NCBI RefSeq assembly: GCF_036507355.1
Contig: NZ_AP027877.1
Direction: 5' to 3' (one strand)
Source of the DNA: Escherichia coli
GTDB taxonomy: Bacteria > Pseudomonadota > Gammaproteobacteria > Enterobacterales > Enterobacteriaceae
Length of the DNA stretch: 64,000 nt
Shown piece by piece: positions 53,501 to 56,500 of this stretch. How positions within the stretch are numbered: the stretch's first letter is position 1; the number at the start of each line of letters is the position of its first letter. A program made the position numbers.

Positions 53501-56500
53501 TGGTGTGGTGATTGAAGTGACGGATAAGAAAAATACGCTGATTAAAAAAGGTGAGGTGCTATTTCGACTGGACCCGACGCGTTATCAGGCTCGGGTGGAT
53601 CGGCTGGTGGCGGATATCGTTACCGCAGAACATAAACAGCGGGCGTTGGGCGCAGAGTTAGATGAGATGGCGGCGAATACTCAGCAGGCAAAGGCCACGC
53701 GGGATAAATTCGCTAAAGAGTATCAGCGTTACGCACGTGGCAGCCAGGCGAAAGTAAACCCGTTTTCAGAACGCGATATCGATGTGGCGCGGCAAAATTA
53801 TCTGGCGCAGGAAGCCTCCGTAAAGTCATCGGCGGCGGAACAAAAACAGATCCAGAGCCAGCTGGATAGCCTGGTGTTGGGTGAACATTCTCAAATCGCC
53901 AGCCTGAAAGCGCAGCTCGCGGAAGCAAAATATAACCTTGAGCAGACGATAGTGCGTGCGCCGAGCGATGGTTATGTGACCCAGGTACTGATTCGTCCGG
54001 GTACCTATGCCGCGTCGCTGCCGCTACGTCCGGTGATGGTGTTTATACCCGATCAGAAACGACAAATCGTGGCGCAGTTCCGTCAGAACTCCTTGCTGCG
54101 ACTGGCTCCTGGCGACGATGCGGAAGTGGTGTTTAATGCTCTGCCAGGTAAGGTATTCAGCGGTAAGCTGGCAGCCATTAGTCCAGCCGTTCCCGGCGGA
54201 GCTTATCAGTCGACCGGCACCTTACAGACGTTAAACACAGCGCCGGGTTCAGATGGCGTTATCGCGACCATTGAACTGGATGAGCATACTGATTTGAGCG
54301 CATTACCAGACGGTATTTACGCCCAGGTGGCGGTCTACTCTGATCATTTCAGCCATGTCTCGGTGATGCGCAAAGTACTGTTACGCATGACCAGCTGGGT
54401 GCATTACCTTTATCTCGATCATTAATCTTCGCTTTCCGCCGCTTGTTCAGGCCGCAGTTGCTGCGACTGAGCAAGCTGGTGGCGAATTTCACGCAGCATT
54501 TCATCCAGCACATACTGGACCCGCCAGGGCTGGTATTCCCGTTTACGGAAGATAGCCACCAGATCCAGCCACCATTCATACGGGTGCTGAAGCAGGGCAC
54601 CAGCGTGCCGTCTTGCAGGTCGCTCTGCACACTTTTGTCTGGCGCAAACACAATCCCCAGGTGATTTCGTGCCAGCTCCAGCGCAGATTGCGTGTTGTCG
54701 CAAACGTAATTTCCCTTCACGCGATAATCCCGCACCTCTTTACTCCCGGCGACGTTGAAGCGCCAGATATTCGCGTCGTCGATCATCATCGAGTCGATCA
54801 AAATACAGGAGTGATGTTCGAGTTCGTCAGGACGGCTAATAGGATGTTTCTCAAGATAGCGCTGGCTGGCATAAGCGGTTACGGCATATTGTGTAATAAA
54901 ACTGGCAACCAGCGATTCATCTTTTGGTGGAGCGTAGCTGATTAAAACATCACAATCATCAGGAAATTCGACGCCTTCATAAAAGGCATTACGCTCAAGA
55001 TTGCAGGTTTTTAGCGATAAGGTTATATCACCGATATCTTTAATTTTATCGATTACATGTTTGGATAAATAGGTAATTATGCCGGTTGGGGCGTAGATGG
55101 TGACCCGACCACGTTTCTCATGCTTATAATCTGCAATAAAATTATTAAGCTGCTCGTTTCTGTCCAGCATGTCGTTGATGTACGGTAACAGCGCGGTACC
55201 AAAAGGTGTGAGCATCAGCTGCCGGGTGGTTCGGTCAAAGACTTTTAAACCCACTTTTGATTCAAAATCAGCAAGGTATTTGCTGACGTTGGCCTGTGCG
55301 ATGCCAAGTACAGTCGCGGCATGGCTGATATTTTCACTGGCAGCGATTACCGAGATAATTTTTAACTCCCGGTACTTAAGTTGTAATTTTGTCATCGCAA
55401 CAGCCCAATTATATATAATTTTATATATTACTATATAAATATGAATCTTGCACCGGAGAAATTGTAAGCATTACTATGCCGACTCTTTTTTATCTTATTT
55501 TAAAATGGAATACCGGACATGTTAATTAACCGCAATATTGTGGCGTTATTTGCGTTGCCTTTTATGGCAAGCGCAACTGCTTCTGAATTATCCATTGGTG
55601 CTGGTGCGGCTTATAATGAATCGCCTTATCGCGGTTATAATGAAAATACAAAGGCAATTCCCCTGATTAGTTATGAAGGTGATTCTTTTTATGTTCGTCA
55701 GACCACGTTAGGTTTTATTCTGTCGCAAAGTGAAAAAAATGAACTTAGCCTGACCGCATCCTGGATGCCGCTGGAATTTGACCCTGCCGATAATGACGAT
55801 TATGCCATGCAACAGCTTGATAAGCGTGATAGTACGGCTATGGCGGGGGTTGCCTGGTATCACCACGAGCGTTGGGGAACCGTGAAAGCCTCTGCAGCTG
55901 CGGACGTTCTGGATAACAGCAACGGCTGGGTGGGGGAGCTATCGGTATTCCACAAAATGCAGATAGGTCGTCTGTCGCTGACACCTGCGCTGGGCGTTCT
56001 CTATTATGACGAGAATTTCAGTGACTATTACTATGGCATTTCAGAGAGTGAGTCCCGTCGTAGCGGTCTGGCAAGTTATTCCGCGCAGGATGCCTGGGTG
56101 CCCTATGTCAGCCTGACGGCAAAATACCCGATAGGAGAGCACGTCGTATTGATGGCGAGCGCCGGATACAGCGAGCTGCCGGAAGAGATTACCGACAGCC
56201 CGATGATTGATCGTAATGAGAGTTTTACCTTTGTCACCGGCGTGAGCTGGCGTTTTTAATTCACCGGTGGATGTCGGTGCGGCTGGCCTACGCTCTCGCA
56301 CCGACTTGTATGCCTGATAAGACGTGTTAAGCGTCGCATCAGGCAATGTGCTCCTTACGTTGGATGCGGCGCGAGTGCCTTATCCAACCTACGGATGGCA
56401 ATGCTTTTCCTCATTCACCCAGATCCGCATTTCGCCTTCACCCCGGTTGGCCCAGCTAAACCATGGGATAAAGGTCAGAGTTTGCGTCTGGCGTTTGGCT

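Follow-up and report, generated by a model that had tools for sequence, protein, structure and literature searches.

A one-base deletion in yiaU (csuR/lpsR) of Escherichia coli: a recent, inherited and probably inactivating frameshift confined to a very small clone

The copy of yiaU found in the 64,000-nucleotide stretch of Escherichia coli DNA analysed here (contig NZ_AP027877.1; hereafter, the window) appears to be a recent, inherited pseudogene that arose by the deletion of a single T, and that probably leaves the strain effectively null for the regulator YiaU (CsuR/LpsR). A probability of roughly 0.88 is attached to this reading. Relative to intact orthologues, the reading frame of the gene is broken by a deletion of 1 nt, i.e. 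not a multiple of three, as the preliminary description of this DNA had noticed in reporting a frameshifted LysR gene. The finding is regarded as an ordinary one: a pseudogene, specific to the strain, of a regulator that is already known.

The ancestral 324-codon gene spans 54422..55395 on the minus strand, a distance of 974 nt, which is one base short of the expected length. This span was delimited from the reading of the ORFs, from alignment with intact yiaU and from conservation of the gene order yiaW-yiaV-yiaU-yiaT annotated for E. coli 100416. On the plus strand, yiaW (52960..53283; DUF3302, 107 aa) and yiaV (53289..54425; an HlyD-family membrane-fusion protein of 378 aa) are intact, the latter being convergent with yiaU, and on the other side yiaT (55519..56259, plus strand) encodes an intact MipA/OmpV-family outer-membrane protein of 246 aa. 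The divergent, AT-rich interval between yiaU and yiaT (55396..55518) is presumed to hold the promoters and the operator. When positions 54200-55700 were scanned, promoter matches were seen only at the level of the consensus, as in shuffled sequence, and six terminator-like matches were obtained where 1.4 were expected.

By sequence identity and by its yiaT/yiaU/yiaV-yiaW neighbourhood, the gene is identified as the yiaU orthologue, encoding a LysR-type regulator. Among 3778 complete genomes, the best matches to the region carry the annotation yiaU and have a DNA identity of 99.3%. A YiaU-specific NCBIfam model was not found, the only hits being generic relatives among LysR-type transcriptional regulators (LTTRs), YafC and GcvA, all of them below cutoffs. 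K-12 has this gene too, again within a yiaW-yiaV-yiaU-yiaT neighbourhood; the window copy differs from it in having lost a T in codon 269, with 79 unrelated residues replacing the native 55.

The ATG at 55395 (minus strand) opens an ORF of 348 codons, and its stop codon ends at 54349 (54349..55395, minus strand, in the ORF listing). Its product follows YiaU as far as ...DLQDGTLVPCF and then becomes unrelated (STRMNGGWIWWLSSVNG..., beginning STRMNGGWIWW...). It is composed of 268 native residues, Phe-269, which is kept as TTC, and the 79 unrelated residues, at a cost to YiaU of its last ~55-56 native residues. The out-of-frame tail overlaps the 3′ end of yiaV by 77 nt, and the −1 frame is open through the native C-terminus (QHPYEWWLDLVAIFRKREYQPW...ESED), which ends at 54422; both the overlap and the open frame had been noticed in the preliminary description, and both hold. 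The stranded coding sequence for residues 270-324 and the stop codon occupies 54422..54589 (minus strand, −1 frame), and a second frame carrying ...QHPYEWWLDLVAIFRKREYQPWRVQYVLDEMLREIRHQLAQSQQLRPEQAAESED is listed from 54703 to 54422.

The base that was lost is not, however, the one first proposed. Alignment with the intact yiaU of strain 100416 contains a single gap, situated in the T-run of the Phe-269 codon (54590..54591, minus strand; TT in the window versus TTT in intact alleles), and the blastn indel list against the reference likewise gives a 1-base deletion in the window at 54590. Intact alleles read GTG CCC TGC TTT CAG CAC CCG, whereas the window reads GTG CCC TGC TT- CAG, so that the missing base is one T on the minus strand, or one A on the plus strand. 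When the T is restored, a protein of 324 aa is obtained (...LVPCFQHPYEWW...), which is the intact length that had been predicted; the intact sequence around the site is ...GTLVPCFQHPYEWW.... The T-repaired product matches, at 100% identity, a YiaU allele carried by at least 1000 public contigs, and the open native frame downstream of the shift is therefore no chance occurrence. The preliminary description had instead called for the insertion of a C in the neighbouring CCC run (54597-54595). That repair also gives an ORF of 324 aa, but its product (...GTLVPLLQHPYEWW..., reading VPLLQHPYEWW) matches no known protein, being absent from a collection of 15 billion, and the alignment gap falls in the T-run; the C-run was therefore rejected as the site of the lesion. 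The preliminary description had named, as a refutation of the frameshift, reference YiaU proteins that end in the manner of the long ORF. The public proteins with that tail proved to be rare frameshift products only, so that the refutation fails.

It was of interest to establish whether the deletion is a property of the organism or of its assembly. The exact 348-aa product is GenBank BED20366.1, from a contig of 4,643,937 bp, where it is annotated as an ordinary 'transcriptional regulator' CDS and carries no pseudogene flag. The same product is encoded in the Logan assemblies of SRR31122001 and ERR3330519. Over 7950 bp aligned to the window, the contigs from these two assemblies contain no gaps and have two and one SNPs, respectively; one SNP is common to both, and one contig has an additional SNP. 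Both contigs share the context TGCTTCAG at the deletion. It is apparent that three distinguishable genotypes, from three archives, carry the deletion, which argues that it is an inherited allele. Moreover, the additional SNP in the SRR31122001 contig, corresponding to window position 56571, splits a GH127 gene into products of 596 aa and 58 aa, which shows that more than one culture carries the yiaU deletion, as opposed to one being sequenced repeatedly. The contigs of the sister isolates end at about window positions 52446 and 61594. The ORF listing at 52385-52543 resembles what we take to be repeats of the REP/BIME type, which would explain the break near 52446. Taken together, the sequences of these other isolates of the same clone effectively establish the deletion as real and inherited.

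The distribution of the allele among other genomes was also determined. A megablast search with positions 54300-55500 found yiaU in 3778 of 5426 complete E. coli genomes, the gene being absent from approximately 30% of them (~1650 of 5426). Every top match comprised 1202 bases in the record against the 1201 bases of the query. A 60-mer of the window that crosses the deletion was matched exactly in none of 3768 yiaU-bearing complete genomes (0/3768). The corresponding T-repaired 61-mer was exact over the aligned stretch in 1592 genomes, and the remaining 2179 matches to it were 95-99% identical, with no gap in any match listed. Nine loci that encode a YiaV protein identical to that of the window all have TTT and a yiaU gene free of the frameshift. 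The encoded YiaU is 324 aa long in eight of them and 322 aa in the ninth, in which the gene is cut off by the end of the contig. Some loci with TTT differ from the window by as few as 2-3 SNPs in 4137 bp (2-5 SNPs among relatives); GCA_025392625.1 and GCA_024779265.1 are examples of relatives with TTT. Since near-identical relatives are intact and none of the 3768 complete genomes has the allele, the deletion is recent, derived and limited to a very small clone.

Other frameshift alleles of yiaU were observed in E. coli. One of these, on a contig of 5.17 Mb, also encodes 348 aa with the same out-of-frame tail and stop, but it shifts after ...ARNHLG (~residue 247), about 22 codons before the site in the window. 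Another encodes 229 aa and shifts after ...NVAGS (~residue 218). As their frames shift elsewhere, they represent events independent of the deletion in the window. Judging from these independent alleles and from the absence of the gene in ~30% of genomes, yiaU is dispensable.

The consequences for the protein were evaluated next to those parts that survive. In the window ORF, the winged helix-turn-helix DNA-binding domain (Pfam HTH_1, residues 9-66; 55198..55371, minus strand) is intact, with an E value of 7.9e-13 and a score of 48.6 bits versus a cutoff of 26.6. The effector-binding domain (Pfam LysR_substrate), by comparison, is matched only at residues 95-266 (54598..55113, minus strand), corresponding to profile positions 5-170 of 209 and a score of 45.4 bits; in the T-repaired protein the match runs from residue 95 to residue 302 (profile positions 5-206) and scores 56.8 bits. 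By descent, then, the allele belongs to the LTTR family, and its product is truncated, with an incomplete effector-binding domain.

A phmmer search of the whole library yielded 12,222 relatives of the repaired YiaU, the full-length ones of which align to approximately residue 300-307. When 80 relatives (20-51% identity) were aligned, occupancy at residues 269-305 was 100% and the mean entropy there was 2.77 bits, versus 2.73-2.79 in the remaining effector domain. Conserved positions in this segment include F/Y283, R286, P290, R292 and D298, and only the tail, residues 306-324, is variable. The AlphaFold2 model of repaired YiaU, built on the 80-sequence alignment, has a pLDDT of 93.7. It places a strand at 265-267, just ahead of the shift, and a long strand (275-284) and a helix (291-312) beyond it. 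In a Foldseek comparison, this model matched full-length AphB with TM values of 0.74-0.82 (E = 1e-21), and the repaired protein is modelled as having the fold of a full-length LTTR. Repaired YiaU also aligns by sequence with AphB (3SZP/3T1B) and CrgA (3HHG), at an identity of only ~20%, through residues 299-306; the last strand and helix of those proteins have no counterpart in the window allele. In LTTR structures (CbnR, AphB and CrgA), the segment to which the lost strand and helix correspond sits within the fold of the regulatory domain. Because the shift precedes strand 275-284 and helix 291-312, two conserved structural elements are lost and 79 unrelated residues are added.

From LTTR architecture, the frameshifted protein would be expected to misfold or to fail to assemble, its regulatory domain being wrecked. 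The loss of conserved elements of the effector domain, as seen in the alignments and the model, suggests that the protein is most likely inactive. The earlier proposal that the regulator is probably inactive thus gains support, part of the conserved core of the effector domain having been lost. Some residual DNA binding may persist, since neither the DNA-binding domain nor the linker helix, through which the protein dimerizes, is affected.

The events that best account for these observations can be set out as follows. Codon 269 lost one T from its run of three, TGC TTT CAG becoming TGC TTC AG, most simply by replication slippage or by a spontaneous single-base deletion, and translation in the wrong frame would then run on for 79 codons. 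In the resulting product, the DNA-binding domain and the linker helix would be kept, together with the greater part of the effector domain, and the strand and helix that complete the LTTR effector-domain fold would be absent. Misfolded or unassembled, this product would leave the strain effectively yiaU null and, if K-12 knockouts are a guide, de-repression of yiaT and a modest fall in waa (LPS core) transcription would follow.

Three other explanations were weighed against this one. The preliminary description had allowed for a sequencing error, in which case the strain would truly have TTT and an intact yiaU. Single-base homopolymer indels are indeed the most frequent errors of assembly, and the window contains an 11-bp deletion in a YadA-like gene that is missing from the assemblies of close relatives, so the record may contain errors. 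Against this, the identical deletion occurs in two independent read sets and assemblies, from different archives, that differ by SNPs from the window and from each other, and a run of 3 nt is an atypical hotspot for sequencing error. Furthermore, the window has few indels in 64 kb relative to a 99%-identical reference, mostly intergenic or in-frame; the only frame-breaking indels in its coding sequences are the yiaU deletion and one of 11 bp, and a further 11-bp deletion falls where divergence from the reference precludes such a comparison. An assembly with so few indels is not one riddled with homopolymer errors, and an artefact is considered highly improbable. More improbable still, to the point of being negligible, is that full-length YiaU is made from this gene by programmed −1 ribosomal frameshifting or by transcriptional slippage. 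The native C-terminus does stay open in the −1 frame and has accumulated no stop codons; this is accounted for by the recency of the deletion. At the site, CCC UGC UUC AGC offers no slippery heptamer of the form X XXY YYZ, the 91 nt around and downstream of it fold no better than shuffled sequences (z = −0.34), and a T-run of 2 nt is much too short for transcriptional slippage. In addition, the shifted arrangement is seen only in the tiny clone, the plain in-frame gene being present in close relatives and in over 3700 further genomes. For want of a slippery heptamer, of unusual downstream RNA structure and of conservation, programmed frameshifting was rejected.

Somewhat less remote, though still unlikely, is a 348-aa hybrid that is partly active or altered rather than null, for example an effector-blind constitutive repressor, a dominant-negative form or a neomorph. 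The deletion leaves residues 1-268 untouched, and with them the helix-turn-helix, the linker helix and the bulk of the effector domain; as the long ORF starts at the native ATG, translation probably persists. On the other hand, the missing strand and helix are conserved to the same degree as the remainder of the domain, are present in 80 of 80 relatives and are modelled at high confidence, and the replacement of a segment inside the fold by 79 unrelated residues should destabilize the domain. Inactivation by an inherited one-base deletion is thus the reading preferred here.

Several additional differences were noted in the window. A gene for a YadA-like trimeric autotransporter (EhaG/UpaG type; 32198..37316, minus strand) is split into ORFs of 256 aa and 1462 aa by the 11-bp deletion mentioned above (GCCAGTGCAGC, at ~36569). 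This deletion is missing from otherwise identical related contigs, including that of ERR3330519, which carries the yiaU frameshift; it is private to the window genome, and is either mutational in origin or an error in the assembly of this repeat-rich gene. The gene for a DUF3251 lipoprotein (37457..38032, minus strand) encodes 191 aa, as compared with 227 aa in E. coli 100416, and lacks TTAATGTCAGA, an 11-bp difference at a short direct repeat (~37473). The 191-aa form was found on at least 10 public contigs, metagenome assemblies included, and is therefore a circulating allele that is more widespread than the yiaU frameshift. Compared with E. coli 100416, 9 bp (GCAGCAGCC) are deleted in frame near the 3′ end of ysaA (~61513). 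The stretch from yiaT to ysaA (56389..~60400) contains three genes, for a GH127 glycosidase, an MFS transporter and an AraC regulator. Beyond these three, the annotation of the collinear reference shows no more than what is left of an IclR-type gene, which suggests that the yiaK-S/sgb operon of K-12 is missing in this strain.

YiaU (b3585) of K-12 was renamed LpsR by Rodionova et al. (2022), who reported ChIP-exo binding at waaP, adeP and other sites (PMC9068703). In the same study, knockout of yiaU in K-12 raised expression of yiaT (log2 2.8) and lowered that of waa genes, as measured by RNA-seq, and gave higher sensitivity to oxacillin under microaerobic conditions (PMC9068703). Working independently, Shimada et al. 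(2022) characterized YiaU as a regulator of the cell surface and named it CsuR, as cited in PMC9308461. Both yiaT and the waa operon, as reported targets, occur in the window in intact form. The LPS-core cluster (waa/rfa; window ~2341..15196), on which YiaU/LpsR reportedly acts, contains no frame-breaking indel; rfaC is frameshifted in the reference strain 100416 but not in the window. De-repression of yiaT and slightly reduced expression of waa would thus be expected in the strain by analogy with K-12, with the limit on this extrapolation that K-12 differs from the strain in waa core type and in the gene content adjacent to yiaT. It had been suggested that loss of the regulator might alter expression of yiaT or of yiaWV; the part of that suggestion that concerns yiaT is plausible in light of its increase in the K-12 knockout (log2 2.8; PMC9068703).

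Adaptive change seems an unlikely background to the deletion, recurrent selection rather than drift then having favoured loss or alteration of yiaU in the small clone, either through a change at the cell surface or through an effector-blind variant of 348 aa. If this were so, de-repression of YiaT together with lower waa expression could alter biofilm formation, sensitivity to complement and sensitivity to β-lactams, and the independent yiaU frameshifts and the ~30% absence of the gene would reflect recurrent selection. For the preferred reading of an ordinary, probably null pseudogene, the significance is mostly one of annotation hygiene: BED20366.1 should be flagged as a frameshifted yiaU pseudogene. 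The clone is, in addition, a candidate natural csuR/lpsR null in which the role of YiaU at the cell surface, through yiaT and the waa operon, could be tested, and it adds one further data point to the view of yiaU as a dispensable regulator that is repeatedly lost by E. coli.
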